Shown: piece after piece, positions 3,381-28,346 of the stretch
Layout of the letters: every line of letters begins with the position of its first letter
Position numbering within the stretch: the first letter of the stretch is position 1
Translations under genes and position numbers: made by a program
Source of the DNA: Candidatus Electrothrix yaqonensis
GTDB lineage: Bacteria; Desulfobacterota; Desulfobulbia; Desulfobulbales; Desulfobulbaceae
Assembly (NCBI GenBank): GCA_047651235.1
Contig: CP178758.1
Coordinates: 30,001-62,000, forward strand
Direction of reading: 5' to 3'
DNA: 32,000 nt
Notes under the pieces: model-generated
The model's input: only the letters and a program-made list of their open reading frames with translations
What the model was told of the DNA's origin: nothing
Databases searched by the model: none

Positions 3381-3902
3381 CTAATAGACACACTTGTAGT
3401 TTCCTCCTTTATAGTCCAATACTTTAGAATTTATTACATATAATTCCTGTTCTGGTACTCCGAATTTTTTTTCCACATAATCTGCACTTAACTTCTCGGT
3501 ATTTTGAGCGTATACAAATTTCATAAGCCCTTTTTGGTAAGTACAGTATATCCTGATCTCTTTATCTGTTGGCTCTATAACTTTTTGTTCAGGGACGGAC
3601 TGTTTGCCAACCTTTTTCTTTGTCGTTTTTGCAATCTTCTCCTCTTTCTTCTCGGTATTCAGATTGCATGTTAACGACTTTCTGCTCGTTTCAACAAAAT
3701 CAGCAACTTTTCTTCTGCCGGGTATCCACTCTATACAGCTCGGTTTTTCAGGCCACCAATCCGGCCTTTCTTCTGATGCGTTAAACACACCATTTTGATC
3801 TTGCCAGAGATACATCTCCCCATACGCATAATCGTTTACAGTTACAAAACTTAATAACACGAAAAAACCAAGAATTATATTACATCGAGAATATTTATAC
3901 AT
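3381..3902 (-). CDS. hypothetical secreted protein, N-terminal region DUF4124-like
   Basis: A strong RBS GGAGGAGG precedes the ATG at 3902 (MYKYSRCNIILGFFVLLSFV..., signal-like). MYLWQDQNGVFNASEE resembles the DUF4124 motif (Y-x-W-x-D-x-x-G-V), judged from memory only. The region is AT-rich. Confidence 0.65.
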   Translation of the reverse strand: MYKYSRCNIILGFFVLLSFVTVNDYAYGEMYLWQDQNGVFNASEERPDWWPEKPSCIEWIPGRRKVADFVETSRKSLTCNLNTEKKEEKIAKTTKKKVGKQSVPEQKVIEPTDKEIRIYCTYQKGLMKFVYAQNTEKLSADYVEKKFGVPEQELYVINSKVLDYKGGNYKCVY

Positions 3903-3929
3903 GAACCTCCTCCTTATCAATTATTTCAA

Positions 3930-4352
3930 TTATTTTGATTGACTCCTGCGGGATATCTTGTTTTTATGGATTTCTATTGCTCGACGATATTCTCTGACAA
4001 GTTCAAGTCGATATGAAACTTTCAGCTGAAAATAAATCGGACTGAGCATCAATATACGAATTACATCATGGAGACTCATCTGTTTATCACTTTCAGTGAT
4101 AGGAACAGGAGATGGAAATTTATTATCAGATGCTGAATTGTTATGACGGGGCAGGGTATTTCGGATGGTTAAACGAGTTCTGTTCGGTTCAGCCTTTTGT
4201 TCGGCTGTTGCATATCGGTAGTCGGTAAGTTCCGGATGATGGACGCGATGCTGCTTATGAGCAGTAGGGACTGAGACAGGACGGCGTAAAGCAGATTTGC
4301 TTATAAGGATAGCGGGATTATCCCGGCAGAATATTTTTTCCGTGGATATCAT
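3930..4352 (-). CDS. hypothetical protein (weakly supported ORF)
   Basis: A 140 aa ORF in the AT-rich insert with no recognisable motif. Its composition is atypical and it may not be expressed. Confidence 0.3.
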   Translation of the reverse strand: MISTEKIFCRDNPAILISKSALRRPVSVPTAHKQHRVHHPELTDYRYATAEQKAEPNRTRLTIRNTLPRHNNSASDNKFPSPVPITESDKQMSLHDVIRILMLSPIYFQLKVSYRLELVREYRRAIEIHKNKISRRSQSK

Positions 4353-4674
4353 AACACACTTCCCGGCGATTTATAAAAAAGCAGGTAACCCGGCGGTCTC
4401 CTTCTCTTCCGGGAGATCCGTGGCTTTCCGACACCGCCTCGCGACGGCTGTGGCTTTATCAGCTTTCCGGTATCGACCAGAAAGCGAAGTATATATTAAA
4501 ATCCATGCAAGTATTGTTCCTTTTTTAGTGTGTATTGTCAATATTGATTAGAAATGAATTCAACTACATTGAATTCTTCAGCTGAGATAGATGCTTTTTG
4601 TTTTTGCATTTTTTTTACCCGATTTCAATAAAAGATATTTTTTTACCTGACACCTATTATCAGAGGTCAAAAAT

Positions 4675-5252: not shown

Positions 5253-6383
5253 TTAGAGGGTTATGCTGAACCGGGAGTTTTTTTTAAAACAGCTTGTCAG
5301 GTCGGAAGTCGCTAACGAACACTCAATCACCCCGTCCTCCGAGGTCACGAGATAAATATCCACCTGCAGGCCGGAGCACTGCTCCGCATACTCCCGGGCC
5401 CGCAGGCAAACCGCCCGGATCAGATCGGCCCTGCCTTGGGCCTGTAAAATCTGCAGAATCTCTCTGGCTGTGTTGGCTGCGGCCATGCGGGCGACGCTTT
5501 CCTGCTCCAGTCTCAGTTCACCGAGCAGACGGGCAGCCTGCTTCATCTCCAAGGCTCCGTTGCGCACATGGGTCTGGGGAATACACAAGGCGCACTTGAG
5601 GACTTTGGCCCACATACCGGCCAGGTGGATGCGGCGGAAGCCGTGCCGCTGCGCTGCAGTGAGGGCATAGGCCAGATAATCGCCCATCATCACCTGGGCC
5701 TCTTCCGGCAGATGCAGGATTTTCTGCACGGCCGCCTCCGAGGTGCGCCCCGTGGACAGGATGACCTGATCCAGTCCGGCAGCGCGGGCCACCTTCATGG
5801 AGGCGTCAACGGTATCGGTCCAGGCCTTGGCCGAGACCGGGCGGACAATGCCGGTGGTGCCGAGAATAGAAAGCCCGCCGAGAATGCCCAGCCGTTTGTT
5901 CAGCGTCTGTTCTGCCAGCTGCTCACCGTTGCGCACACTGACTGTGACAGCCAGCCGTACCGGCCTGTTCTGCCGCTCTGTCACTTCGGCCACGGCCTCC
6001 CGGATCATCCGCCGGGGACCGGGGTTGATGGCCGGTTCTCCCACGGCAACCGGCAGACCGGGCTTGGTCACGGTTCCCACCCCGGCACCGGCCCTGAGTA
6101 CAACCGTTTCTTCGCCTTCCTCCAGTTCCAGCTCTCTGACAGAAGCAAGGATCTCGGCCCCGTTGGTCACATCCGGATCATCTCCGGCATCCTTGATGAC
6201 GGACGCCATCGCGTTGCCTTCCTGCAGTTTGCAGGTATGCAGAAGAAAACTGTGCCGTTCCCCGTTGGGAAAAAGGATGTCTACCTGCTCAGGATGCTGC
6301 CCTGCAAGGAGCAGCAGGGTTGCCGCTTTCGCTGCAGCCGCTGCGCAGGCCCCGGTAGTAAAGCCGGATCGGAGGGTACTCAT
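5253..6383 (-). CDS. cbiD: cobalt-precorrin-5B (C1)-methyltransferase
   Basis: LRSGFTTGACAAAAAKAA is the typical CbiD N-terminus, and the length (376 aa) fits. Confidence 0.9.
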   Translation of the reverse strand: MSTLRSGFTTGACAAAAAKAATLLLLAGQHPEQVDILFPNGERHSFLLHTCKLQEGNAMASVIKDAGDDPDVTNGAEILASVRELELEEGEETVVLRAGAGVGTVTKPGLPVAVGEPAINPGPRRMIREAVAEVTERQNRPVRLAVTVSVRNGEQLAEQTLNKRLGILGGLSILGTTGIVRPVSAKAWTDTVDASMKVARAAGLDQVILSTGRTSEAAVQKILHLPEEAQVMMGDYLAYALTAAQRHGFRRIHLAGMWAKVLKCALCIPQTHVRNGALEMKQAARLLGELRLEQESVARMAAANTAREILQILQAQGRADLIRAVCLRAREYAEQCSGLQVDIYLVTSEDGVIECSLATSDLTSCFKKNSRFSITL

Positions 6384-6584: not shown

Positions 6585-8051
6585 ATGAAGATATATAACA
6601 CGTTGACCGGAAAAAAGGAAACCTTCGTCCCTATTGAGGAGGGCCGCATCCGCCTCTATGTCTGCGGCATCACCTCGTACGACTACTGCCATATCGGCCA
6701 TGCCCGCTCGGCTCTGGTCTTTGACATGGTGGTGCGCTACCTGCGCTATCGGGGCTACGACGTCACCTTTGTCCGCAACTTTACCGATATTGACGACAAA
6801 ATCATTGTCCGGGCTGCTGAACAGGGCATTGATGCGGCCGAGCTTGCCGAACGGTTTATCGGCGAGTTCTACACCGATATGGATGCCTTGGGTGTGCTGC
6901 GGGCAGACCTTGAACCCAAGGCCACCGAGCATATTCAGGAGATGATCGAACTTGTCCAGGAACTTATCGACCAGGGGTTGGCCTATCCGTCCGGCGGGGA
7001 TGTCTATTACCGGGTACGGAAGTTCCCGGATTACGGCATGCTTTCCGGCCGTAATCTGGAAGATATGCAGGCTGGTGCCCGTATTGATGTCAATGAGCAG
7101 AAAGAAGACCCGATGGATTTTGTCCTCTGGAAGGGAGCCAAACCGGGCGAGCCGCACTGGCCTAGCCCCTGGGGAGAAGGGCGACCGGGCTGGCACATTG
7201 AGTGCTCGGCCATGAGCCGCAAATACTTGGGCGCCAATTTTGATATCCACGGCGGGGGCAAGGATCTGATTTTTCCCCATCATGAAAACGAATTGGCCCA
7301 GTCTGTGGGAGCGAACAACTGCCCCTTTGCCAACCTCTGGATGCACCACGGCTTTGTCACCATCAAAGAGGAAAAGATGTCCAAGTCTCTGGGCAACTTC
7401 CTCACCATCCGGGACGTTCTCCGGCAGTATCCAGCCGAGACCCTGCGCCTGTTCCTCTTTTCCACCCAGTACCGTAATCCTCTGGATTTCAGCGAGACTG
7501 CCCTGCAGGATGCCCAGACCGGTCTGGATCGGATGTATGACTGTCTGGCCGGAATCAACAGGACGGTCCGTTCTGTTGACAGTGCCGGGGAGGAGTCGCT
7601 GATCAGCCCTAAGTACCGCAAGAAGATTCTCTCCCTGCAGCAGCGCTTTGAGACGGCAATGGACAATGACTTCAACACGGCTCAGGCCATCGGCCATCTT
7701 TTTGATGGCGTCAAGGTGCTGAACAAAATATGCAGAATGCTGACTGCACAGGAAGGAGCGGCTGAGGACGTGGTTCTGCTGCACCAGGGCGGAGCAATTC
7801 TGCGCGAGCTGGCCGGGCTGCTCGGTGTGCTGCAGCAGAATCCGGAGCAGTACATGCAGGGTAAAAAAGAGGCTCTGCTGGCCAGGATCACTCTGTCCGA
7901 GGAGGAGATCACTGCCCTGATCGCCAAAAGAAATGCAGCACGGGCAGCAAAGGACTGGGCTGCCGGCGATGCGGTCCGCGACGAGCTGCTTAGCCATAAT
8001 ATTGAACTGCACGACGGCCCGGACGGCACGACCTGGGATGTGAAAGCATGA
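6585..8051 (+). CDS. cysS: cysteine--tRNA ligase
   Basis: The in-frame ATG at 6585 gives [42 protein letters not shown] (HIGH motif) and KMSKS is present. The long N-terminal extension in the ORF track (from 5568) is antisense to cbiD and spurious. Confidence 0.95.
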
Positions 8052-8105
8052 AGAAGGCCTGAGCAGATTCCCTGCTTCCTGCGGAAAAATAGGCGGAACA
8101 GATTT

Positions 8106-8960
8106 ATGGATATTCGCTACGTCGGGATCATTACCCGCCGGAATTCCCCTGATGTCCGCCAGGTGGGCCGGGGACTGGCTACCTGGTTTGCCCAGCGTTC
8201 CATAAAGGCGGAACTGGACCGGATTGATCCGGCAATGGACATGCTGACCATTTTGGGCGGTGACGGCACCCTGCTCCATGTTGCAGATCAGGCCTCCCGT
8301 TACGGTATCCCGGTGGTGGGCATCAATCTGGGCAATCTGGGCTTTCTCACCGAGGTGGCTGCCGGAGAGATGTACCAGGCCCTTGAGCAGATCCTGCACA
8401 GCGGGGTTACCATTGAAGAACGGATGATGCTCCGGGCCAAGCTGCTGGATGAAAACGGTGAACCGGCCGGGCCGTCCATGTTCGCCCTCAACGAGGTGGT
8501 GATCGTCAAGAGCAGCACGGAACCCATGATGCGCCTCCGCTGCTGGGCTGACCGGGAATACATCACCACCTACAAGGCGGACGGCCTGATCATCTCCACG
8601 CCCACCGGTTCCACAGCCTATAATCTCTCCGCAGGCGGCCCCATTGCCCATGCGGAACTCCGAACCCTGCTGGTCACCCCGATCTGCCCTTTTATGCTGG
8701 AATCCCGGCCGGTACTGCTTTCCCCCCGCACCCGGGTGACTGCCCAGCTGGCCCCGCCTTCAACCAATGTAAAAATCATGGTGGACGGCCGCCTGGGCTG
8801 GACCATGCACGCCAATGATTTTCTCACTGTTGAGGCTGCTGCCCGACCGCTGCGCCTGATCAGCTCGCCGCATAAGGGTTATTTCGCCATCCTGCGCAAC
8901 AAACTGAACTGGGGCGGACGTGATCCCGGTTACCCGCTGCCGGAGGTCATCATGGCATAG
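8106..8960 (+). CDS. nadK: NAD(+) kinase
   Basis: GGDGTLL, NLGNLGFL and STPTGSTAYNLSAGGP motifs are present; 284 aa. Confidence 0.92.
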   Translation: MDIRYVGIITRRNSPDVRQVGRGLATWFAQRSIKAELDRIDPAMDMLTILGGDGTLLHVADQASRYGIPVVGINLGNLGFLTEVAAGEMYQALEQILHSGVTIEERMMLRAKLLDENGEPAGPSMFALNEVVIVKSSTEPMMRLRCWADREYITTYKADGLIISTPTGSTAYNLSAGGPIAHAELRTLLVTPICPFMLESRPVLLSPRTRVTAQLAPPSTNVKIMVDGRLGWTMHANDFLTVEAAARPLRLISSPHKGYFAILRNKLNWGGRDPGYPLPEVIMA

Positions 8961-11664: not shown

Positions 11665-11785
11665 GCAGGGAGGAGATGCAGGAACCTAATCCGGAAAGCC
11701 TTTGAGCAAAAATCATAAAAGAGGGGAAATCGTGTGGGTGACGGGAACAGAGGTGAGTTGCCGCAGCAGAAAAGTTGTTGGCGGG

Positions 11786-11857
11786 CTAATGCTGCAAATA
11801 ACCGGTGCAAATGGAGCGCAGCGGAATTTGCATCCGAGTTAATTTGCCTTGTTAGCG
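11786..11857 (-). repeat. attC site 1 (distal end of the array; R' box degenerate, ATTAGC)
   Basis: On the plus strand: gctaatgctgcaaataaccggtgcaaatggagcgcagcggaatttgcatccgagttaatttgccttgttagc. It shares the central atggagcgcagcggaat with attC 2. Confidence 0.7.
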
Positions 11858-11858
11858 C

Positions 11859-13592
11859 TTACATTGTTTCTATTATGCCTCTGAGTTCATCCAGTTTATA
11901 ATCTGAAATTTCACCATTTTGGTGCTTCACGATAATATTTAGCGGCTTTAAATCTTTTCTTTTTGGTTTTTCGATTCCCAAAAATGATTCGAAGTCATTC
12001 TCAAAAGCATAGATTGTTTTGGTAAAAGCTGTTCTCTTTTGTTCAATAAAAGAATTGATTATTCCGTGTATACCTGCATCTTCATCCGAATCAAGCATGA
12101 CAGAATGTTGTATGCCTAAGGCAGTCATCAATGTGATGCATCGATGTATATTGAATTTTCCTAATGTATCAAACAGATACATATGTTTTTCTCTGAGGTC
12201 AGGCCAATATTCATCAAGCAAGTAGTCTATAAATACTTTTTCTGATGTGCCCTCGCAAATAATAACCTTCTTAGCAAAGAACATTGCGGCTCTTTCAGAA
12301 TCTAACCACAAAAAATACTTAACAGCCTCTTCCTCTAATTTCGATGAATGACATGGATCATCTTCGCCGAGCTTGTCCTTTCGTATTCTTTTTTTTATGC
12401 CCTCGTCAATGTCATCCGAATTCAAACAATCACAAAATTTATTATAAAGGCCAAGGTTTGCATCAATCACCTTTGAAAAAATTTTATCTGTTATTTGAAA
12501 AGTTTCTGTTTTTCCGTTGTTTTTAGAAAGTCGTATTATTCCCGACAATTGAGATGCTTGCTTGCTTACAAAATGGGGAGAGTGACTTGAAATTAAGACT
12601 TGCTCAGGGCCTTTAGATGCAAGGGACCTTAGGCTTAGGTGAAGAGAGTTCTGTTGAGCAGGATGGAGAAATGCCTCAGGTTCTTCGAATAATATTAGTG
12701 TGAAATCGGGGTCGAAGTCTTTTTTCTTACCTGCTGTTGTTGCAGCATACTTAGCAGATAATTTAATCAGAGTGAAAATTAAATGTCGCTGAAGGCCTTG
12801 ACCAAATGAAGCAAGATTAATTTGTTTCCCACCAAGCCCAACATCCTCGATATAATGCGACAGAAGGTTTTTAACAATATCCTCAGGCTTTATCGTATTG
12901 ACTGATACGCCAAACTTAATGTTCCATAAATTTATTTCTGAATTAATGTCGTCAATAAGTGAATCAATAGAAAAGCCATCTTTGGATGATTCGGTTTTAA
13001 AATCAGTATTAAATGTGTCAAAAGCCGTCTTCAATCCGCCGAATGTAGGGCTCTCAAGGACGGCCCGTTTCATAACGAAATTGACCATTTCTCGAAATGG
13101 TGATGGCCCGGAGAGCTTTAGTGTTTCATCTGTTTTGCTAACAGCTGGAATGAATATAACCTTCCCCAACTTTGCTTGAGACACATTTTTTGCACCATAA
13201 AACAGATTAATTGACAAAACACCAGATTCATAAGCGTATATATTGCTCTGGGAAGATTTAACCAGTTCTTTGTTTGATGATTGAAAATATTTTCTAACCC
13301 TTAAGATTTTGTCAGAGGATTTATACTCATCTTTTAAGCTATCTTGTTCATCTTCTGTTGTTTCAAAGGCTAATTCAATCCAACTTTCTTCATCATCAAC
13401 CTCAAACTTTGGGAAATCAGTGTCTTGCTTATACTTAAGTCCTCCATCTTCATAAAAGAGCCTAAGTGCGGTAATGATATTTGTCTTTCCAGCATTGTTT
13501 TCACCTACCAACATTGAATAGTCAGATAGCTGGCACTCCACATCTTTGATAGATCGAATGTTATGAATGACTAGTTTTTTAAGTTTCATCAC
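11859..13592 (-). CDS. OLD-family ATP-dependent endonuclease (ABC-type ATPase fused to Toprim), stand-alone
   Basis: Walker A GENNAGKTN, Walker B/signature LILFEEPEAFLHP, SSHSPHFV, and C-terminal Toprim motifs VIICEGTSEKVF and DSDED. 577 aa. It is the only ORF in its cassette and no UvrD-like partner is nearby. Confidence 0.85.
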   Translation of the reverse strand: MMKLKKLVIHNIRSIKDVECQLSDYSMLVGENNAGKTNIITALRLFYEDGGLKYKQDTDFPKFEVDDEESWIELAFETTEDEQDSLKDEYKSSDKILRVRKYFQSSNKELVKSSQSNIYAYESGVLSINLFYGAKNVSQAKLGKVIFIPAVSKTDETLKLSGPSPFREMVNFVMKRAVLESPTFGGLKTAFDTFNTDFKTESSKDGFSIDSLIDDINSEINLWNIKFGVSVNTIKPEDIVKNLLSHYIEDVGLGGKQINLASFGQGLQRHLIFTLIKLSAKYAATTAGKKKDFDPDFTLILFEEPEAFLHPAQQNSLHLSLRSLASKGPEQVLISSHSPHFVSKQASQLSGIIRLSKNNGKTETFQITDKIFSKVIDANLGLYNKFCDCLNSDDIDEGIKKRIRKDKLGEDDPCHSSKLEEEAVKYFLWLDSERAAMFFAKKVIICEGTSEKVFIDYLLDEYWPDLREKHMYLFDTLGKFNIHRCITLMTALGIQHSVMLDSDEDAGIHGIINSFIEQKRTAFTKTIYAFENDFESFLGIEKPKRKDLKPLNIIVKHQNGEISDYKLDELRGIIETM

Positions 13593-13607
13593 AGTTCCCT
13601 ATCAGGC

Positions 13608-13678
13608 GCTAACGACTGAACTCACTGGTTTTTATGGAGCGCAGCGGAATAAAAATCCAGTGCAGTGATTTGTTATGT
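13608..13678 (-). repeat. attC site 2
   Basis: GCTAAC(13608-13613) gactgaactcactggtttttat ggagcgcagcgga ataaaaatccagtgcagtgattt GTTATG(13672-13677). The arms are imperfectly paired with bulged bases. Confidence 0.8.
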
Positions 13679-13712
13679 GTTCTTTTTTTATTCAGCAGTA
13701 TTCGAATCAATA

Positions 13713-14402
13713 CTAAACTGCTAATGCATTAACCAATTTATCGAAATAAGATACCAAAACACTCTTTATTTCATTTACGCAATTAAGATACCTTTTCAAA
13801 GTTTCTTCATCCTGTCCATCCGGCCATGGATTTGTAACGTCTCCACTAAGCCCAAAAAACTCTTTGAATAAATAAACTCTCTCGTTTCTTTGAGGAAATT
13901 TCAACTCAAGCATTTTGAGAACATCTTGCGACATTACTATAATCAAATCTGCGTTTTCAAATATATCCTTTGTGATTTGTCTACACTTATGATTAGACAA
14001 TAAATCTTTACCATATACTGACTTGATGGCATATTTAGCTCCATATGAAACTTTCAAATCAGAACTGTCACTCACTGCCATAGCTTTAATTTCTAATTTA
14101 AGGTTAAGCCCTTTTTTATTAAGAAGTTGTTCTGTAATTACCTTAGCAATTGGATCTCTACAAGTTCCACCAGTGCTTAGGTAAACAAGAACTTTTGATT
14201 TTTTAATTTTTCTTATTAATCTCGATATACCACCCCATAACAAAAGAAAACATGTTGGAATCAAAAGCAGACTAATCTTTGTCAACCAATTAATGTTTTG
14301 GAATTTAGGAGACAGCTCAAGATATAAGATTCCTAATACCCAAATCAAAGCAGCAGCTATAAGTTTGCTAAATACTGGATCTTTCCAAATTTTCTTTATC
14401 AC
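13713..14402 (-). CDS. membrane-anchored LMW-PTP/ArsC-fold protein with substituted catalytic residues
   Basis: The probable GTG start at 14402 avoids overlap with attC 3; the ORF-track start 14444 lies inside the attC. There are two N-terminal hydrophobic helices. VLVYLSTGGTCRDP aligns to the LMW-PTP P-loop V-C-x-G-N-x-C-R-S-P with Ser in place of the nucleophilic Cys. HKCRQITKDIFENADLIIVM matches, and VTNPW replaces the DPY acid-loop motif. Confidence 0.65.
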   Translation of the reverse strand: MIKKIWKDPVFSKLIAAALIWVLGILYLELSPKFQNINWLTKISLLLIPTCFLLLWGGISRLIRKIKKSKVLVYLSTGGTCRDPIAKVITEQLLNKKGLNLKLEIKAMAVSDSSDLKVSYGAKYAIKSVYGKDLLSNHKCRQITKDIFENADLIIVMSQDVLKMLELKFPQRNERVYLFKEFFGLSGDVTNPWPDGQDEETLKRYLNCVNEIKSVLVSYFDKLVNALAV

Positions 14403-14418
14403 ATTGTTCTCTCTTACA

Positions 14419-14489
14419 CATAACGACCAAGCTGTGCGGCGCAAACGAAGCGCAGCGTAGTTTGCGTCCGAACGAGCGCCTTGTTAGCT
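14419..14489 (-). repeat. attC site 3
   Basis: CATAAC(14419-14424)...gcgcaaac gaagcgcagcgta gtttgcg...GTTAGC(14483-14488). The TAA stop of the 222 aa ORF lies inside the core. Confidence 0.8.
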
Positions 14490-15152
14490 CTTTTCTGAAT
14501 CTTCTTCATCTGAAATATATGAAACCAGCATTCTACCAAGTGTAGTAAGGCTAGTTGTTTTACCCCGTTCCTCTGTCAAGCCGAGCCTTAAAAGCGTTGC
14601 TTTATAACTATCTTGCAATGCGGCCCTTTCATGCTGCTCTTGAGGTGCCCCCATTGTTCTGCTTATAGGATTAAGTATTTCCGGGTGTTTCTCTACCCAT
14701 TCAGAATGAGGCCCCTTACCAAGTACTGGGTTTAATGAATAGTAAATCAGCCAAACAATCTCTGGATCGGTGAGTTCTCTATACAAGTTGATTAGCTTCC
14801 GAGCCTCTTCATATTTCATCTCTTTTGCTGATAATGATTTTGCTACCAATCTAGCCAACCGCTCTTTTCTTTCCTTAGAAACAGATCTCGATGCTTGAAC
14901 TATTCCTTCCTCAAATATGTCGAGTCCCTCTTCAGCTTTGAGATGTTCTTTAAAGGAGGAAAATCGCTCATCTAAGTGAGCCACATTATTCTCAAGAGTC
15001 TTTAGGAAACTGACAACTCGCTCGAACCGCAGATTTGGCACTACTGCATCTAGCGTTTCCCCCACTAACGTTCCAATAAATGGGAGCGCGCCTGCCGCCG
15101 CTTTCGCAACACTAACCAATCTGTCCCTAGAGTTTGTTTCAAGCTGCTTCAT
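14484..15152 (-). CDS. hypothetical protein (single-gene cassette)
   Basis: A 222 aa, mostly helical ORF with RBS AAGGGG upstream and its stop codon embedded in attC 3. The N-terminal LPFIGTLVGETLDAVVPNLRFERV faintly recalls Abi_alpha/DUF4393-type proteins. This is unverified. Confidence 0.7.
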   Translation of the reverse strand: MKQLETNSRDRLVSVAKAAAGALPFIGTLVGETLDAVVPNLRFERVVSFLKTLENNVAHLDERFSSFKEHLKAEEGLDIFEEGIVQASRSVSKERKERLARLVAKSLSAKEMKYEEARKLINLYRELTDPEIVWLIYYSLNPVLGKGPHSEWVEKHPEILNPISRTMGAPQEQHERAALQDSYKATLLRLGLTEERGKTTSLTTLGRMLVSYISDEEDSEKS

Positions 15153-15169
15153 CCGAACCCCTTTTTAGA

Positions 15170-15260
15170 GCTAACGCATCACATCACCGGCAGCAAAAGG
15201 CAGAGCGACGAGGAACGAGGAGCGGCGCTTTTTGCTGTCCGAGTGCATGTGTTTGTTAGC
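15170..15260 (-). repeat. attC site 4
   Basis: GCTAAC(15170-15175) gcatcacatcaccggcagcaaaagg ... cgctttttgctgtccgagtgcatgtgttt GTTAGC(15255-15260). Its arms are closely related to those of attC 5. Confidence 0.85.
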
Positions 15261-15270
15261 ATTTTTATTG

Positions 15271-17262
15271 TCATATATCACATTTTAGCGACTGCATTCT
15301 GACAAGCTTTCCCCAACGCTCCCCTAGCAATGATATGCCATAAAGTGATGGATTTACTTCAAGATACCGATCAATAAGTGTCCGTGTTTTTTCTGTTATC
15401 TTATTTGTGGCACCATTAGCAGTATTGATTAGATAATAATCAAAAGTTTCTTTATTCCTTAAAGGAATTATTGCAATGACTTTTTTTGCCTCGACCATGT
15501 CCGGTATGCCGTTCAACCTATATAATTTTCTGGTTTCATGTTCATACGACATTCCATATCTCTTTAATAAAGGCAATAAATGTTCTCGCTGGGAAAATAC
15601 TGAAGAGGCATAGCTTTCTAGCTTATGTGCGTCAATGGTAAGTTTCTTACTCCACTCTTCTGCATCACTGCTACTTATGCCAGATGATAAAGAATATTTG
15701 TGCCATATCGACAAACAGCCTTTAGTTGCGACATCTATTGAAACGCCATGTTTATCAGGATTATAGAATACTGGCGAGCCATATTCTAATAAGAAACTTC
15801 CTGTGCCAAACGAACCAATATGCTTTGAGTTATTAATTACAAAATCGTATGTCTCTTTAGCGTCTTCATGTGTTTCACCTGGAAAACCAAAGAAAGTAAA
15901 GCAGTTTATAAAAATCCCACTGTCAGCTGCGGCAATCAGATTCTTTTTTATCGTATCTTTTGATGGGAAATTGGTTTTATTCATCAACCCCAAGACGCGC
16001 TCGGATGCTGATTCTAAACCAACATACATTACCAGAAAGCCTTTTTCATACAAATTACTAAATATCTCTTTTGAAAAAGACTCTTCAAAACGCATGATTC
16101 CAGAAAACGACCAACCACTTTGCTTTTTAGTTGGAAAAACGCGACCAATATCGCGTAATAAACGAGGTGGCATGGCCTCGTCATTAAAGCAAAAGTTGCT
16201 TACTCTATATTTGTTACTCAGCCTTTCTATTCTTTCCAAAAGCTGTCTTGTTTTTACATAATTAAACTTTCCGCCATAAACTTCGCTGTGTGTACAAAAT
16301 TCACACTTACCCCAATAACAACCTCGATATGATAATATTGGAAGTGTAACTTCAGAAGTAAAATATTTTTCGAAATCTATATCAGAAAAATCTGGATCAA
16401 CATCTACGCTAATATTGCGATAATCGTGAGAAAATTCACCATTAAAAACAGTGTTTCCAGACTCCATAAAATAGATATTGGGAACATCTTCAGTAAGGGC
16501 CTTGCCAGCACAATTGTTATTTAAAATAGCAGAACAAGGAATTTCCCCCTCTCTTTTGACGACTATATCAAAATAGATAGTAAACCATCTTGAAGGAATA
16601 GACGTTCGATCAAGCAATCTATATAGCACCGTACCGCCAACAACCACAGTTTTTTTTGTATTCTCTTTTAGTGCTTTTCCCATCATTAAAGTCATCAACA
16701 ATTGACTATAGCCAACACATGAAATCCCGATTATTGATGCGTTATGGACGTCAGGACTATCAAGGAAGCTCTCCACAAACCGTTGAAGGAGGCTATTTTT
16801 CTTTGATAGAATTTTTTCTAATTCGTCAACATAAAATCCTGATTTTGAATGCATTTCCATGCCGAATGGCGAAATAGAAACCGGTTTGGTAAGTAATGAA
16901 ATTGTTTCCAGGTATGAAGTCAATATTCGCGTTGCAATATAGCTGTTCTGTAAATACTTGTTATTATCAGATTCTCCGCCCTTTAATAATTCATGAATCG
17001 AGGTTCTTATATGGCGTATATTAGATATAGTCGCTCTAATTGCTTCTTTTTTTTGACAGTCAAAGCCATGATTATCCTTTAGCTCTTCCAACAGAATGTT
17101 TGCCGCTTCATCTGATAGTAAATAGTGATAAAAGTCTATGTTTGCATCAATACAACCAACGCGGTAGCCTTCATTTCGTAACCAGCCTGCAAGTGTGGAA
17201 ATAGTTAGCGCGGGTTGAAATGGACTCCATTGTGGAGGGAAAATTAGCGTTATATCATGCAT
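15271..17262 (-). CDS. B12-binding-domain radical SAM enzyme (putative peptide-modifying enzyme)
   Basis: The N-terminal MHDITLIFPPQWSPFQPALTISTLAGWLRNEGYRV and VVVGG are typical of the cobalamin-binding Rossmann-like domain of class B radical SAM enzymes. The cluster motif is RGCYWGKCEFC. The start at 17262 is preferred because the hairpin at 17289-17326 overlaps the longer ORF-track start. Confidence 0.8.
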   Translation of the reverse strand: MHDITLIFPPQWSPFQPALTISTLAGWLRNEGYRVGCIDANIDFYHYLLSDEAANILLEELKDNHGFDCQKKEAIRATISNIRHIRTSIHELLKGGESDNNKYLQNSYIATRILTSYLETISLLTKPVSISPFGMEMHSKSGFYVDELEKILSKKNSLLQRFVESFLDSPDVHNASIIGISCVGYSQLLMTLMMGKALKENTKKTVVVGGTVLYRLLDRTSIPSRWFTIYFDIVVKREGEIPCSAILNNNCAGKALTEDVPNIYFMESGNTVFNGEFSHDYRNISVDVDPDFSDIDFEKYFTSEVTLPILSYRGCYWGKCEFCTHSEVYGGKFNYVKTRQLLERIERLSNKYRVSNFCFNDEAMPPRLLRDIGRVFPTKKQSGWSFSGIMRFEESFSKEIFSNLYEKGFLVMYVGLESASERVLGLMNKTNFPSKDTIKKNLIAAADSGIFINCFTFFGFPGETHEDAKETYDFVINNSKHIGSFGTGSFLLEYGSPVFYNPDKHGVSIDVATKGCLSIWHKYSLSSGISSSDAEEWSKKLTIDAHKLESYASSVFSQREHLLPLLKRYGMSYEHETRKLYRLNGIPDMVEAKKVIAIIPLRNKETFDYYLINTANGATNKITEKTRTLIDRYLEVNPSLYGISLLGERWGKLVRMQSLKCDI

Positions 17263-17271
17263 TCTTGTTTT

Positions 17272-17326
17272 CCAAACAAAGATAAATACCATGAGCATCT
17301 CGATCTTAATACCAAGACGCTCATGG
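17272..17326 (-). terminator. attenuator/terminator-like hairpin between the peptide genes and the radical SAM gene
   Basis: Minus-strand CCATGAGC(17326-17319), a 22 nt loop, GCTCATGG(17296-17289), followed by TATTTATCTTTGTTT. Confidence 0.45.
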
Positions 17327-17346
17327 TAAAGATGGCTATCTTCATT

Positions 17347-17505
17347 TTAGTTATTGTTATTGTTTTGATACGTATCCGTCATTCTTAGAACTGAGTTTGA
17401 GGCTGAAAGCACTTCAAGCATATCCTCTTCGGGTAATTCTCGAAGTTTCTCCACAATTTCTTTCTGAAATGCTAAGGACGCCGAATCGGGTTGCTCATTA
17501 TCCAT
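17347..17505 (-). CDS. putative RiPP precursor peptide 2 (52 aa)
   Basis: Not in the ORF track. RBS GGAGGA lies 6 nt upstream of the ATG at 17505. Sequence: MDNEQPDSASLAFQKEIVEKLRELPEEDMLEVLSASNSVLRMTDTYQNNNNN*. It is a paralogue of the adjacent peptide. Confidence 0.65.
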   Translation of the reverse strand: MDNEQPDSASLAFQKEIVEKLRELPEEDMLEVLSASNSVLRMTDTYQNNNNN

Positions 17506-17507
17506 AG

Positions 17508-17675
17508 CTAATCCTCCGCAACAATTGCCTTATTATTGTTGTTTTGGTATTCAACCGCCATTTTTAAAATGGAATTATTAGCTTGAAGTACTTCTAGCAT
17601 GTCCTCGTCACTGAGGGTTTTTAGTTTCGCTACGATCTCTTTGTTAAAAGCAGCAGCTTTTTCTTCATTAGACAT
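17508..17675 (-). CDS. putative RiPP precursor peptide 1 (55 aa)
   Basis: RBS AAGGAG lies upstream of the ATG at 17675. Sequence: MSNEEKAAAFNKEIVAKLKTLSDEDMLEVLQANNSILKMAVEYQNNNNKAIVAED*. It shares F-x-KEIV-x-KL..L..EDMLEVL...NS-x-L-x-M...YQNNNN with peptide 2. Confidence 0.7.
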   Translation of the reverse strand: MSNEEKAAAFNKEIVAKLKTLSDEDMLEVLQANNSILKMAVEYQNNNNKAIVAED

Positions 17676-17777
17676 AGTTCGTCTCCTTATTAAGGCTTTT
17701 GGAAAGTGATTAAACAAATGCTCTCGATGTGAAAACTAAATAGTATGCATAGGCCTCACCTCCTTTTCTTTATTGAT

Positions 17778-17960
17778 GCTAATGCCGAGTTGACCGTAAT
17801 TTTCCTGGTATAATGGCCGCTTGCGGTTGATTATACCAGGAAAATTTCGAGTCCAACGTTTGGTTCCGAAGGCGCGCAGCGCCGCAGGAATCAAATGTTG
17901 GGCCGGTACGGTCAACTCGGCATTCCAAAGGCGTGGCCCGAAGGGGCGCGCCTTTGGAAC
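17778..17960 (-). repeat. 183 bp structured ORF-less element, copy 1, inserted in attC 5
   Basis: I found no differences from 20306-20488 when comparing by eye. It splits GCTAA|C of attC 5. It contains a 16 bp long-range stem (aatgccgagttgaccg / cggtcaactcggcatt), a perfect 17 bp AT-rich hairpin, a 15 bp hairpin and a 9 bp GC hairpin. Confidence 0.9.
17830..17856 (-). promoter_or_regulatory. candidate extended -10 promoter inside element copy 1, facing the peptide/rSAM cassette
   Basis: On the minus strand: TTGGAC(17856-17851), a 15 nt spacer, then TGGTATAAT(17838-17830). A mirror TGGTATAAT lies on the plus strand at 17806-17814. Confidence 0.35.
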
Positions 17961-18051
17961 GCCACACATCACCGGCAGCAAAAAGTAGTGTGGCTGTAGC
18001 GAAGCGTAAGCCGCGCTGCTTTTTGCTGTCCGAGTGAATGTGATTGTTAGC
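17960..18051 (-). repeat. attC site 5 (its GCTAA half-core is displaced to 17778-17782 by the 183 bp element)
   Basis: c gccacacatcaccggcagcaaaaag ... gctgctttttgctgtccgagtgaatgtgatt GTTAGC(18046-18051). The TAA stop of the 115 aa ORF lies inside the core. Confidence 0.8.
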
Positions 18052-18394
18052 TTTTATCTTTCTCAACTACAGCTATATGTGCAGGTGGGCGAGTTCTTGA
18101 CATAGGCTGTAACGTTGGTTGTGTAGGTTGTGGCGTTCCAGGAGCCGCTCCGCCTCCAACCAGAATTACTACAGATGGAGTAAACCCGGGTATTTGAACA
18201 GGTGTACCTTGTTGTGGGACAAACGCAGAAGCATCATAGCTTTGAACTGATGGTTGTGTTCCTCCAATTTCCACTTCTACATCTTTTCTTGAACCATCAT
18301 CCAGCTCTAATTGAGTTCGAATTACTTCTCCAGTTTGATTATCAACCGTCAATACATATGTTGTCACATTCGATTTTTCTTCTTTCTTGCTCAT
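18047..18394 (-). CDS. hypothetical 115 aa protein with a Pro/Gln/Thr/Gly-rich C-terminal half (possible large precursor or substrate protein)
   Basis: RBS GGAGG precedes the ATG at 18394 (MSKKEEKSNVTTYVLTVDNQTGEVIRTQLELDDGSRKDVEVEIGGTQPSVQSYDASAFVPQQGTPVQIPGFTPSVVILVGGGAAPGTPQPTQPTLQPM...). The stop is embedded in the attC 5 core. The gene overlaps the upstream rSAM gene by 53 nt. Confidence 0.6.
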   Translation of the reverse strand: MSKKEEKSNVTTYVLTVDNQTGEVIRTQLELDDGSRKDVEVEIGGTQPSVQSYDASAFVPQQGTPVQIPGFTPSVVILVGGGAAPGTPQPTQPTLQPMSRTRPPAHIAVVEKDKS

Positions 18395-20282
18395 TGCAAA
18401 CCTCCATTTGGATTGTGGGGAAATTAGAAAATATTTTGGATAGAATTGCGTCCCCAATTATGAGCAAACCTATCCACTTTGAACCTGCTTCTATTACCAA
18501 GTTGGATTCTTTTAGCTGTTTTAAAAACCTATTCAAATGAAACTGCTGTATGTTTCTTTTATTTAATTCTTTAGCCAGAGAACTAAGGCTGATAGGCTTG
18601 TCTAGAAGCGCTAAGATAATAGACTCCTCATCACTAAAGTAATGATATCTCTTTTTTGAAATAATTCTTTCATCTACAACAATAGAGGTAGAATCCTTAT
18701 AAGTAAGGAACTCAAGCCTTGGCCTTTTATGTGAGTAATGTTTCCATTGCTGACAAGCGCTTACTAATGACTTGCTTTTTCGGTTTAGATTAAACCCTTC
18801 GCTGTAATCAAACTCAAAATAATAAGCAATATTATTGATTTCTTCTTCCGTTAACCTGTATACCTCTTTATATGTTTTCATAGGGCGAATATTTAGAAAT
18901 CCATGCTGATCAGGGCTGGTAAAGTTTGGACTAAAACGATCAAGACGAACTGCCGCGGTAGCTTGCGGTGGTTCTAAGTGATGAATATTCCAGACAACAT
19001 CCGTTTGAAATTGATAACTACTCTCATTTTCATTAGGAAATCCAAATAATAAGTTCCAAGCAATACCAACACCGTATTGTTTTGCCCATTTCAACAATGC
19101 AATATTTTGCGCTCCAGACACTCCCTTCCCAATCAATTTTAATGTGTCATCAGAGAAACTCTCGATCCCTGGTTGAATTGAAATTACCCCTGCTTCTTTA
19201 AGTTTTTTAACGTCACTTCGCTTGATATTAGACTTAGTTTCAAAGAAGATTTGTATATCATGTGGGATGTGGGATAATTCCTTGATAAAAGTTTTAAAAT
19301 ACTGATGATCAATAATGTTATCCGTAAAGTCTATTTTTTTTACATCATATTTTTTCGATAGAGCAAGTAACTCATAAAGCGCTCTATTTGGCGACTTTCT
19401 CCTATAGGACATAGTCCTTCCGTTTAGGCCACAAAATGTACAGTGACTTTTCTGGCCCCACCAACAACCTCGGGATGATTCAATAAATATTCCTTTTCGA
19501 CCTGACAAAGAATAATTTAGGTTTTTTACATAGTTAAAATAATCATCAAAATCTGGATAAGGAAGGCTGTCTAAATTCTCAGTTAAGTCATATGGTGAAT
19601 TGATAAAAATCTTCCCATTCTTTCGTATGGAAAAACCATTAGTTTCTTCTTCACAGTTATGTATTTTTCTTCTAAGGAGCTCTGGAAAAGAAGAGTCGGC
19701 CTCACAGGTCGATACGTAATCGATATGGTTAAAGCTCTTCAATAGTTGGCTCCCCATTTCCGATTCACAATTTGCACCACCAAAACATATCGAAATAGAG
19801 GGGAAATTATTTTTTATCTCTCTCGATAAGTAGAGACTAGGAAATGTTTGTTCGAAAGTATTTGTAAAACCTACCACGCCATATTTAAACCACGGCGCCG
19901 ACTTTAGACATAGCGAGATAAAATGATTAACTACCCCTCGAATGTCAATAACTGCGTCAAGAAGATGCTTAGGCATAGGCCAGCCACTTTCTAAAAGAAA
20001 GTTGTCGATATATGAAAAATCCGACTTGGAGAGCTCATAATATTCTGATGAGAAGACCCACTCTCCTAGTAACAGGTCATTTGGCACTACAAACCCATCA
20101 ATTTCCAAAGTGCCACACATGAATTCATAACGTTCCGAAGATATTAATTTGGCAAACAGAACATTGAAGTCAAAAATGTCAACATTATGACCTTCATTTT
20201 CCAGAATTGATTTTAGAAGCCCCAAGGCCAGAGATGGTCTTTCAGCTGAAGAGAACGGCATATTTATTAATGCAACATTCAT
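18342..20282 (-). CDS. B12-binding radical SAM enzyme of the RiPP-maturation type (TIGR03975-like), with a C-terminal winged-helix/RRE-like region
   Basis: MNVALINMPFSSAERPSLALGLLKSILENEGHNV..., GEWVFS and SSRGCWWGQKSHCTFCGLNG (C-x7-C-x2-C) match my memory of the rSAM_ocin_1 family. The C-terminal FSDEESIILALLDKPISLSSLAKELNK...FLKQLKESNLVIE looks like a PqqD/RRE-type wHTH. Confidence 0.8.
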   Translation of the reverse strand: MNVALINMPFSSAERPSLALGLLKSILENEGHNVDIFDFNVLFAKLISSERYEFMCGTLEIDGFVVPNDLLLGEWVFSSEYYELSKSDFSYIDNFLLESGWPMPKHLLDAVIDIRGVVNHFISLCLKSAPWFKYGVVGFTNTFEQTFPSLYLSREIKNNFPSISICFGGANCESEMGSQLLKSFNHIDYVSTCEADSSFPELLRRKIHNCEEETNGFSIRKNGKIFINSPYDLTENLDSLPYPDFDDYFNYVKNLNYSLSGRKGIFIESSRGCWWGQKSHCTFCGLNGRTMSYRRKSPNRALYELLALSKKYDVKKIDFTDNIIDHQYFKTFIKELSHIPHDIQIFFETKSNIKRSDVKKLKEAGVISIQPGIESFSDDTLKLIGKGVSGAQNIALLKWAKQYGVGIAWNLLFGFPNENESSYQFQTDVVWNIHHLEPPQATAAVRLDRFSPNFTSPDQHGFLNIRPMKTYKEVYRLTEEEINNIAYYFEFDYSEGFNLNRKSKSLVSACQQWKHYSHKRPRLEFLTYKDSTSIVVDERIISKKRYHYFSDEESIILALLDKPISLSSLAKELNKRNIQQFHLNRFLKQLKESNLVIEAGSKWIGLLIIGDAILSKIFSNFPTIQMEVCNEQERRKIECDNICIDG

Positions 20283-20305
20283 TTATGGCTCCTGTCTCAT
20301 TTAAA

Positions 20306-20488
20306 GCTAATGCCGAGTTGACCGTAATTTTCCTGGTATAATGGCCGCTTGCGGTTGATTATACCAGGAAAATTTCGAGTCCAACGTTTGGTTCCGAAGG
20401 CGCGCAGCGCCGCAGGAATCAAATGTTGGGCCGGTACGGTCAACTCGGCATTCCAAAGGCGTGGCCCGAAGGGGCGCGCCTTTGGAAC
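20306..20488 (-). repeat. 183 bp structured ORF-less element, copy 2, at the promoter-proximal end of the array
   Basis: No differences from 17778-17960 by eye. It is flanked by GCTAA| and |C, so removing it restores GCTAAC (GGTTAGC on the cassette strand). Confidence 0.9.
20358..20384 (-). promoter_or_regulatory. candidate extended -10 promoter inside element copy 2, facing the rSAM gene at 20282
   Basis: Same sequence as 17830-17856. TGGTATAAT lies about 75 nt upstream of the ATG at 20282. Confidence 0.35.
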
Positions 20489-20765
20489 CATTGATTATCA
20501 GAGAATCAGTCCTTATAGTCACCGAAACCTGATATTCTCAGGGAGAAATACCCTGAGATTCGACTTATCAGTATATTTTCCCAGATAACTTGAATTCTTT
20601 ACTGTTATCTGATAATATATTCCTGAATAATTTATTATCAGAGCACCATTATCTGTCTCTAAACGCATCTTTCAGATATGTCAAGAGAAAACACAAGAGG
20701 AATGAAATATCGGGAAAAGATGGGAAAAATGAGCTGATCATACGTTACTGATTTTAATTTCCGTC

Positions 20766-27534: not shown

Positions 27535-28346
27535 ATGAACGCTCCCAGCCCCGAAAAAAGAAGTCCCCATGACAAATTCTTTGAGTTGACCGGCATCGCC
27601 CGGCAACTTACGTCTTTTCACGAAAGATATCATCATTTTTTTAAGAGACATACGGTAAGTTTGTCAGATAAAGCATTCCAATACTTGAAAGGTTTATTCC
27701 AGTCTGACAAAAAAACATGGAACGTATGGAGGAAAAGGTTCCGGGCGTTAAATATGAGCCCCTCCAGTATTTTCTTTCCGAATCGAACTGGGATTGGCGT
27801 CCTGTAAACAACCACGTAGCTAAAGATGCGGATAACATTTTTGGAGGAAAGGAAGATAGCGCTCTTTTAATTGATGAATCCGGGATACCCAAAAAGGGTA
27901 AAATGTCTGTTGGGGTTTCTCGTCAATGGTGCGGGCAGCTTGGTAAAACCGACAACTGTCAAGTAGTAGTGTTTGCAACTTTGGGATATGGTCGCTTTTC
28001 AACGCCGATCGACTGTCGGCTGTATTTACCGAAAAGCTGGACGGATGACAAGGAACGTTGTCTTAAGGCTAAGGCTCGGGGATGGCTGGCTTGGCATCAT
28101 CATATGACTATGGTCATGATGGCCATGTTGTTTATGGTCGAGCAACGATTATACCATCAAGTCGGTGTCCCGTTATTGAGTTGCGCTGATATAACAACAT
28201 TACTCAAGTCAATTCTTCCACGTCGAGATGTAAACGAAGATGAAGTTATAAGACAGCTTTGTCAACGGCATGAAAAGAGGCAAGCTTCGATTGATTTCGC
28301 ATATGAGAAACAACGGAATTGCAAATTATTACCACAGCCTTTGTGA
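27535..28346 (+). pseudogene. IS701-type (IS4-superfamily DDE) transposase pseudogene
   Basis: FHERYHHFFKRHTVSLSDKAFQYLKGLFQSDKK is in one frame. NMERMEEKVPGVKYEPLQYFLSESNWDW...LLIDESGIPKKGKMSVGVSRQWCGQLGKTDNCQV is in another, with the shift at an A7 run (27708-27714). After ...ERCLKAKA the sequence jumps to the C-terminal WHHHMTMVMMAMLFM region, which indicates an internal deletion. Confidence 0.75.

Follow-up and report, generated by a model that had tools for sequence, protein, structure and literature searches.

Here we describe a two-gene unit in a 32,000-nt stretch of the cable bacterium Candidatus Electrothrix yaqonensis (contig CP178758.1, positions 30,001 to 62,000), which is referred to as the window and provides the coordinates used below. 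The unit encodes a 646 amino acid (aa), putatively B12-dependent (class B) radical S-adenosylmethionine (SAM) enzyme (18342..20282) and a 115 aa partner protein (18047..18394), a putative ribosomal substrate or precursor, and is closed by an attC site (attC_1, 17954..18052). It is a promoterless integron gene cassette in an array of five attC sites, and its genes, like all array features described here, lie on the minus strand. The enzyme and its partner are also on record, in identical form, from Candidatus Electrothrix sp. YB6 (a metagenome-assembled genome of a cable bacterium), with the NCBI names 'RiPP maturation radical SAM C-methyltransferase' for the enzyme and 'hypothetical protein' for the partner (RiPP, a peptide made by the ribosome and modified after translation). 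The enzyme is thus of a known kind and already annotated as such; what is new is the family of the partner, the minimal format of two genes, and the fact that a cable bacterium carries the unit as an integron cassette.

The enzyme is a member of TIGR03975, the NCBIfam family 'RiPP maturation radical SAM C-methyltransferase'. It matched model positions 1–604 of 606 with 599.3 bits, far above chance and well over the curated cutoff of 281.85; the runner-up NCBIfam family reached 72 bits. A preliminary description, made from the sequence alone, had named the same family, and the strings on which it relied (INMPF..RPSLALGLLKS, GEWVFS and CWWGQKSHCTFCGLNG) are all present in the translation of 18342..20282; the objection it had foreseen, that profile scores might place the enzyme outside the RiPP-associated radical SAM families, was not borne out. 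The Pfam Radical_SAM core scored 65.3 bits. A cobalamin-binding-like region (residues 132–202; 19677..19889) matched Pfam B12-binding with 18.9 bits, below the cutoff of 32.1 bits, and all 41 aligned homologues matched the same model at E ≤ 0.1 and in colinear alignment to the enzyme. The Fe-S cluster motif CWWGQKSHCTFC (19431..19466), read from the translation, has the form Cx7Cx2C (C273, C281, C284), and its three cysteines are invariant across 41 sequences. The same unconventional motif has been reported for PoyB, PoyC and the bottromycin methyltransferases, which act on C-beta atoms; PoyC methylates valine in vitro (PMC5682303, a review). TIGR03975-type homologues are numerous (at least 7,880 proteins at E ≤ 1e-50 among 8,000 candidates scored), and the closest relatives among the matches listed are P0006 (52% identity) and P0007 (50%), with all others at 41% or less. 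A PDB sequence search with the enzyme retrieved no relative of solved structure. Cobalamin synthesis is encoded nearby, as indicated by a host CbiD gene within the window (5253–6383).

The C-terminal segment of the enzyme was modelled with AlphaFold2 as a fragment comprising residues 470–646, from an alignment that included 41 homologues. The model had a mean predicted local distance difference test score (pLDDT) of 79.6, with means of 82–97 for blocks of ten residues over fragment residues 51–150. In enzyme residues 523–605 it contains, in this order, three strands (fragment residues 54–58, 64–68 and 77–80), three helices (82–90, 97–106 and 114–123) and a beta-hairpin wing. Three strands followed by three helices is the element order of PqqD-like peptide recognition elements (RRE). 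The threshold of the Pfam PqqD model (PF05402), 23.4 bits, was exceeded by two homologues of 38% identity, P0052 and P0063 (25.8 and 26.5 bits), and the matching stretch (residues 545–598) is colinear in BLASTP with enzyme residues 546–594. The predicted structure and the colinear matches support a winged helix with RRE topology at residues 523–606 (18465..18716), for which leader binding is a putative function. The built-in RRE-like domain of the preliminary description is therefore upheld as a predicted fold, but not as a peculiarity of this enzyme: such a domain lies within the TIGR03975 model itself and is consequently a trait of the family.

The partner gene starts with ATG at 18394, out of frame and 53 nt inside the enzyme gene, which ends at 18342, and GGAGG stands 6 nt upstream of this start codon. 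The overlap, the GGAGG site and the low-complexity segment of the 115 aa protein had been described previously, and both open reading frames (ORFs) were confirmed on the minus strand. A start at TTG 18457 would extend the product to 136 aa; the ATG start is confirmed because the N-termini of homologues (MSKKE, MVKKQ or MAKKK) agree with it. Low complexity, the lack of a database family and the out-of-frame overlap are also features of a chance or non-functional ORF over the 3' end of the enzyme gene. We consider this explanation exceedingly improbable: the ratio of non-synonymous to synonymous substitution rates (dN/dS) of the small gene is 0.07 between the window and locus L009 and 0.06 between loci L002 and L003, at synonymous divergences of 0.52–0.67; homologues with conserved blocks form 15 clusters; and the position behind the enzyme gene is kept also in pairs without gene overlap. 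The ORF is under strong purifying selection and is a real protein-coding gene; selection, homologues and synteny together rule out a spurious reading frame.

A search with the single partner sequence found three homologues (86%, 55% and 54% identity), and a profile search over 1.84 billion cluster representatives added only four. A later profile search enlarged the family to 15 sequence clusters, to which locus L022, reached from the side of the enzyme, adds one profile-level relative. In every relative with readable upstream DNA, the partner gene lies directly downstream of a TIGR03975-type enzyme (loci L002, L003–L008, L009/L010, L011, L012, L013, L015, L016, L017, L018 and L022), which answers the concern, raised in the preliminary description, that the small ORF might not be conserved beside homologous enzymes. 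The linkage persists where the enzymes share only 37–40% identity. In the clade of P0008 and P0009 (40% identity), the downstream ORF (101–104 aa) shares the N-terminal motif of the partner, and in L022, with an enzyme of 37% identity, it matches the partner profile with 95.4% probability (E = 1.7e-8). The genes overlap by 53, 8 or 4 nt or are separated by gaps of 1 to 54 nt, always in the same order, and this spacing suggests translational coupling. Searches of GTDB representative genomes, viral contigs and plasmids found no partner relatives. The partner matched neither Pfam nor NCBIfam (E ≤ 0.01), and its family is therefore covered by neither database. A separate observation concerns locus L023, where a TIGR03975 homologue of 37% identity is followed by an unrelated ORF of 127 aa (7917–8300) with a 4-nt overlap at the enzyme's 3' end; enzymes with a coupled small downstream ORF may therefore be a more general arrangement, in which the partners come from more than one family.

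The N-terminus of the partner is rich in lysine and leads into the motif V-T-T-Y-V-L-T-V-D-x-x-T-G-E-V-L-R-T-x-x-E (VTTYVLTVDNQTGEVIRTQLELDDGSRKDVEVE, 18269..18367), the most widely conserved element of the family, which is predicted to form a beta-hairpin and is proposed to serve in recognition. In the AlphaFold2 model of the partner, only residues 12–38 are ordered (strands 12–17, 24–30 and 36–38; pLDDT approximately 80), and the remainder is disordered, a pattern expected of a substrate composed of leader and core. A variable linker separates the motif from a conserved block within the disordered region (PGFTPSVVILVGGG, 18149..18190), the proposed modification site. The block reads P-G-F-T-P-S-V-V-I-L-V-G-G-G and is invariant in four close members; 12 of the 15 members have the form P-S-[VIA]-[VI]-I-[LVY]-V-G-G, and the corresponding strings are PSIVVYVNG (L022) and VPTVVLFGD (Nevskiaceae group). 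The proline-rich tail that follows varies in length and sequence among members and ends in motifs that differ by subgroup (RTRPPAHIA in the window, PPKV in another).

Both genes are part of a low-GC island (11784–20488) of 38% GC, compared with 54–56% in the host DNA. On the minus strand, an imperfect palindrome follows each gene or gene set of the island; its inverse core sites are GCTAAC or CATAAC on entry and GTTAGC, GTTATG or ATTAGC on exit, as in attC sites (R'' RYYYAAC-like, R' GTTRRRY-like). These palindromes make the island an array of five attC sites, all oriented alike and spaced 0.8–2.9 kb from start to start, which is within the 4 kb by which two or more such sites count as an array. 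attC_1 closes the cassette of enzyme and partner; its R'' site (AGCTAAC) holds the TAA stop codon of the partner gene, one of two cases in which an ORF stops within the first core site, and its R' site is G↓TTCCAA (the arrow marks the junction). The other sites follow the radical SAM gene of the neighbouring cassette, which encodes peptides with the string YQNNNN (attC_2, 15169..15261, 76.2 bits), a 222 aa ORF (attC_3, 14418..14489, 73 bits), an ORF resembling low-molecular-weight phosphatases (attC_4, 13607..13678, 63.3 bits) and, at the end of the array, an ORF for an OLD-family nuclease (attC_5, 11784..11857, 78.8 bits). These scores are those of a covariance model built from six sites (the five of the window and that of locus L003), the structure of which was drawn by hand (15 pairs; the automatic RNAalifold structure had 5). 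The model finds only the five window sites in 32 kb and the same site in loci L004–L007; as the window sites went into the model and must match it, this result attests to consistency but does not test the sites independently. Rfam has no family that matches the attC sites.

When folded as bottom-strand DNA, four of the five sites were more stable than shuffled controls (z = −2.2 to −6.4), the exception being attC_3 (z = −0.9). The folds have one to three single-base bulges, all on one arm; attC_1 (−28.1 kcal/mol, z = −6.4) has three. attC_1 aligns with the four other sites of the array and with the closely similar attC that closes the homologous gene pair in L003, whereas in L002 the distal half of an attC is all that is kept (GCTGCCGGTTATGGCGAACGTTAGGC), with an IS3 transposase upstream. 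Terminators and repetitive extragenic palindromic elements were considered as alternative identities of the sites and were rejected because of the conserved inverse core sites, the stop codons in R'', the one-sided bulges and the presence of the same site behind a homologous cassette from another metagenome. As an observation in its own right, the cassette of L009, which comes from another metagenome and is 86% identical to that of the window, carries a group II intron (1546–1909; RF02005, 88.3 bits) that begins directly after the first attC core site and lies on the same strand as the ORFs.

The cassette of enzyme and partner extends from TTAGC at 20310 to G at 17960 (approximately 2.35 kb) and holds the two genes and attC_1 alone. 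Because it is bounded by cassette junctions and an attC site, it can move, or once moved, as one piece. The preliminary description had spoken of two radical SAM 'cassettes' and had suspected that they were independent systems. Their independence is corroborated: the enzyme of the YQNNNN cassette is only 22% identical to that of the unit described here and scores below the TIGR03975 cutoff, and the attC site between the two sets makes them separate integron gene cassettes, the literal sense of the word, which that description had missed. The remaining cassettes of the array encode two YQNNNN peptides together with the second B12-dependent radical SAM enzyme, the 222 aa protein without assigned function, the phosphatase-like protein and the OLD-family nuclease (PADLOC Old, 191.9 bits). 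None of 38 window ORFs scanned (nearly all of those of at least 100 aa outside spurious overlaps) has a Phage_integrase domain, and the array is therefore integrase-less within the 32-kb window. In the terminology of IntegronFinder, cassette arrays without an integrase form the class CALIN. The array resembles this class in its five attC sites of one orientation, the inverse core sites, the bulged imperfect palindromes, the stop codons in R'' and the lack of an integrase in the window; typical integron cassettes contain one short ORF, whereas the cassette described here consists of two coupled genes, for the enzyme and its likely substrate, in 2.35 kb. An AT-rich spacer (20489..20765, 34% GC) separates the host RNase H gene from the first G↓TT junction and has several sigma-70-like matches on the minus strand; the attC model found no site within it, and it may be a promoter region or the remnant of an attI site. 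Full-text literature searches turned up no publication that describes RiPP or radical SAM genes as the cargo of integron cassettes, nor any on integrons in cable bacteria.

An element of 183 nt is present in two copies of 100% identity, one before each radical SAM cassette and exactly at the junctions: copy A (20306..20488; beginning with G↓TT and ending with A↓TTAGC) directly upstream of the enzyme gene, and copy B (17778..17960) between attC_1 and the YQNNNN cassette. With 55% GC, the element stands out from the island (38%), and as RNA it folds into one hairpin and a long stem enclosing two hairpins (−102.8 kcal/mol, z = −11). Read as a circle, it would have complementary core sites (TTGGAAT and ATTCCAA) without bulges, and for this reason it is possibly a cassette without a gene; it could also be a promoter carrier or a structured RNA. 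By eye, an extended −10 sequence, TGGTATAAT, can be recognized on both strands of one of its hairpins, but a promoter scan detected no canonical sigma-70 site within the element. Rfam gave no match, exact-pattern scans of genome and metagenome contigs and a blastn search of plasmids revealed no relative, and a looser pattern of the hairpin retrieved only three unrelated chance hairpins. In an independent assembly (run SRR31704081), a contig of 2402 nt (L001) ends inside the element on both sides (1–30 and 2376–2402), and these breaks agree with the element being a genuine repeat of the source DNA rather than an assembly error.

We consider it fairly probable that enzyme and partner are an enzyme-substrate pair. 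The enzyme would be a radical SAM C-methyltransferase that depends on cobalamin and is of the type of PoyB and PoyC. Its RRE-like C-terminal domain would dock the co-translated partner at that protein's conserved N-terminal beta-hairpin, and its catalytic core would then methylate unactivated carbons in the disordered remainder of the partner. The likeliest target would be the beta-branched block P-S-V-V-I-L-V-G-G; the Val/Ile/Leu residues of this block are favoured over the Pro/Gln/Thr-rich tail because the block is the second element that is conserved throughout the family.

In a variant of this scheme, the conserved N-terminal 82 residues up to V-G-G-G are the leader, and the variable tail is the core, which is modified by the same enzyme and released by a protease encoded elsewhere. 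Such a division would fit the classic pattern of leader and core, as conservation falls sharply after V-G-G in 12 of the 15 members and the tails are variable, and methylation of Gln, Thr, Val, Ile and Pro has been reported for PoyB/PoyC and the bottromycin enzymes (PMC5682303). The preliminary description, too, had seen in the GGG motif a possible double-glycine leader end. The two glycines are not kept throughout the family: in distant members, their place is taken by VNGD (L022) or by FGD, FGN or FTK (Nevskiaceae group). No peptidase-domain transporter, peptidase or other protease gene was found linked to the pair in any locus examined, and it is the hydrophobic block itself that is kept throughout. 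GGG is therefore no double-glycine site common to the family, and we judge a core in the tail to be unlikely. The suggestion that the partner is a proteusin-like precursor fails at the level of sequence, as NCBIfam, including the leader families NHLP (TIGR03793) and Nif11 (TIGR03798), gave no match in 10 family members at E ≤ 10.

Several results weigh against docking of the hairpin and methylation of the block as proposed above. The window enzyme did not match Pfam PqqD even at E ≤ 1, and the threshold of this model was reached by only 2 of the 41 homologues scanned; Foldseek searches of the PDB with the C-terminal domain yielded hits with E > 0.03 throughout, most of them generic winged-helix proteins. 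The small protein matched no known precursor family in the Pfam and NCBIfam scans, and its role as a substrate, like the chemistry, is inferred from how the genes are linked and from family membership. In no context examined does a gene for a protease, an exporter or immunity lie beside the pair, and the conserved C-terminal motifs RTRPPAHIA and PPKV are not accounted for by an enzyme-substrate relationship. Finally, a TIR-WD40 protein is encoded beside distant pairs, which hints at a role other than that of an exported natural product.

The TIR-WD40 genes were found in L011 (5741–8812), L017 (6320–9385), L012 (7262–9157) and L022 (2740–5886). The proteins that adjoin the pairs in the Nevskiaceae-type loci L011 and L017 (same strand, 13-nt gap) and in L022 (divergent) have 1021–1048 aa, and this adjacency suggests a functional link with the distant pairs. 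The small protein might then act inside the cell, with or without modification, as one component of a conflict or defence module that includes TIR-WD40 proteins or other effectors, and the integron would carry the pair because such arrays stockpile defence genes. The OLD-family nuclease cassette in the same array and the lack of a linked exporter or protease speak for such a role, and a preprint reports that integron cassettes encode phage defence systems (bioRxiv 10.1101/2024.07.02.601719). On the other side, neither the enzyme nor the partner matches any PADLOC model, a TIR-WD40 gene is absent from the window cassette, L002, L003 and L016, no relatives were found in the viral contigs, and the enzyme family is annotated as one of RiPP maturation; we hold a defence module to be rather improbable. 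More speculative still is a combination of the two ideas, in which the cassette is a mobile, self-sufficient module and its methylated, largely disordered product serves as an intracellular ligand or partner of conflict proteins of the TIR-WD40 type and not as an exported antibiotic. Should this long shot prove true, chemistry of the RiPP type would have been recruited to bacterial immunity or self/non-self conflict and would circulate as integron cassettes, and the 183-nt element would serve specifically to express or mobilize such cassettes.

The enzyme-substrate pair that we favour can be compared with two groups of known systems. With the proteusin (polytheonamide) pathways of PoyB and PoyC, it shares the Cx7Cx2C motif, a cobalamin-binding-like region, a linked small protein made by the ribosome, and an enzyme that matches TIGR03975 over its full length. 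PoyB and PoyC are probably themselves members of TIGR03975, as the NCBI family name suggests. In contrast to those pathways, the partner in the window is not a precursor of the NHLP or Nif11 type, and the module is borne by an integron and consists of two genes only, without an epimerase, dehydratase, protease or transporter. The combination of a small peptide, a PqqD-like winged-helix domain (here predicted) and a radical SAM enzyme is also that of PqqA/PqqD/PqqE and of the mycofactocin proteins MftA/B/C. Unlike in those systems, the putative recognition domain forms a C-terminal fusion with a class B (cobalamin) enzyme and not with a SPASM enzyme, a Pfam PqqD match is missing in the window enzyme and present in two of 41 homologues, and the peptide is a protein of 115 aa with a predicted beta-hairpin.

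A substrate or precursor family without a Pfam or NCBIfam model would be defined for a very large enzyme family, and the minimal format (one enzyme, one substrate, no tailoring genes) makes the chemistry directly testable. A complete peptide-modification unit would be able to travel as a single integron cassette, with two such units side by side in the window, and the known cargo of integrons (resistance, toxin-antitoxin and defence genes) would be widened to RiPP-like biosynthesis. The recurring TIR-WD40 neighbour provides a testable lead to modified small proteins that act inside the cell.

Some further features of the window were recorded. A mini-ORF of four codons (ATG CAT ACT ATT TAG; 17735–17752, minus strand) with a strong AGGAGG site lies in the interval from copy B of the 183-nt element to the first gene for a YQNNNN peptide. 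Downstream of the attC array, a stretch of lower GC content contains a fragment of a DDE_5 transposase (27717–28346, plus strand; 114.8 bits, model positions 31–150 of 272). A second low-GC patch (37% GC) carries a c-di-GMP-I riboswitch (4381–4464, minus strand) with 49.9 bits against a gathering score of 35, located upstream of two ORFs without a Pfam match (3930–4352 and 3381–3920).

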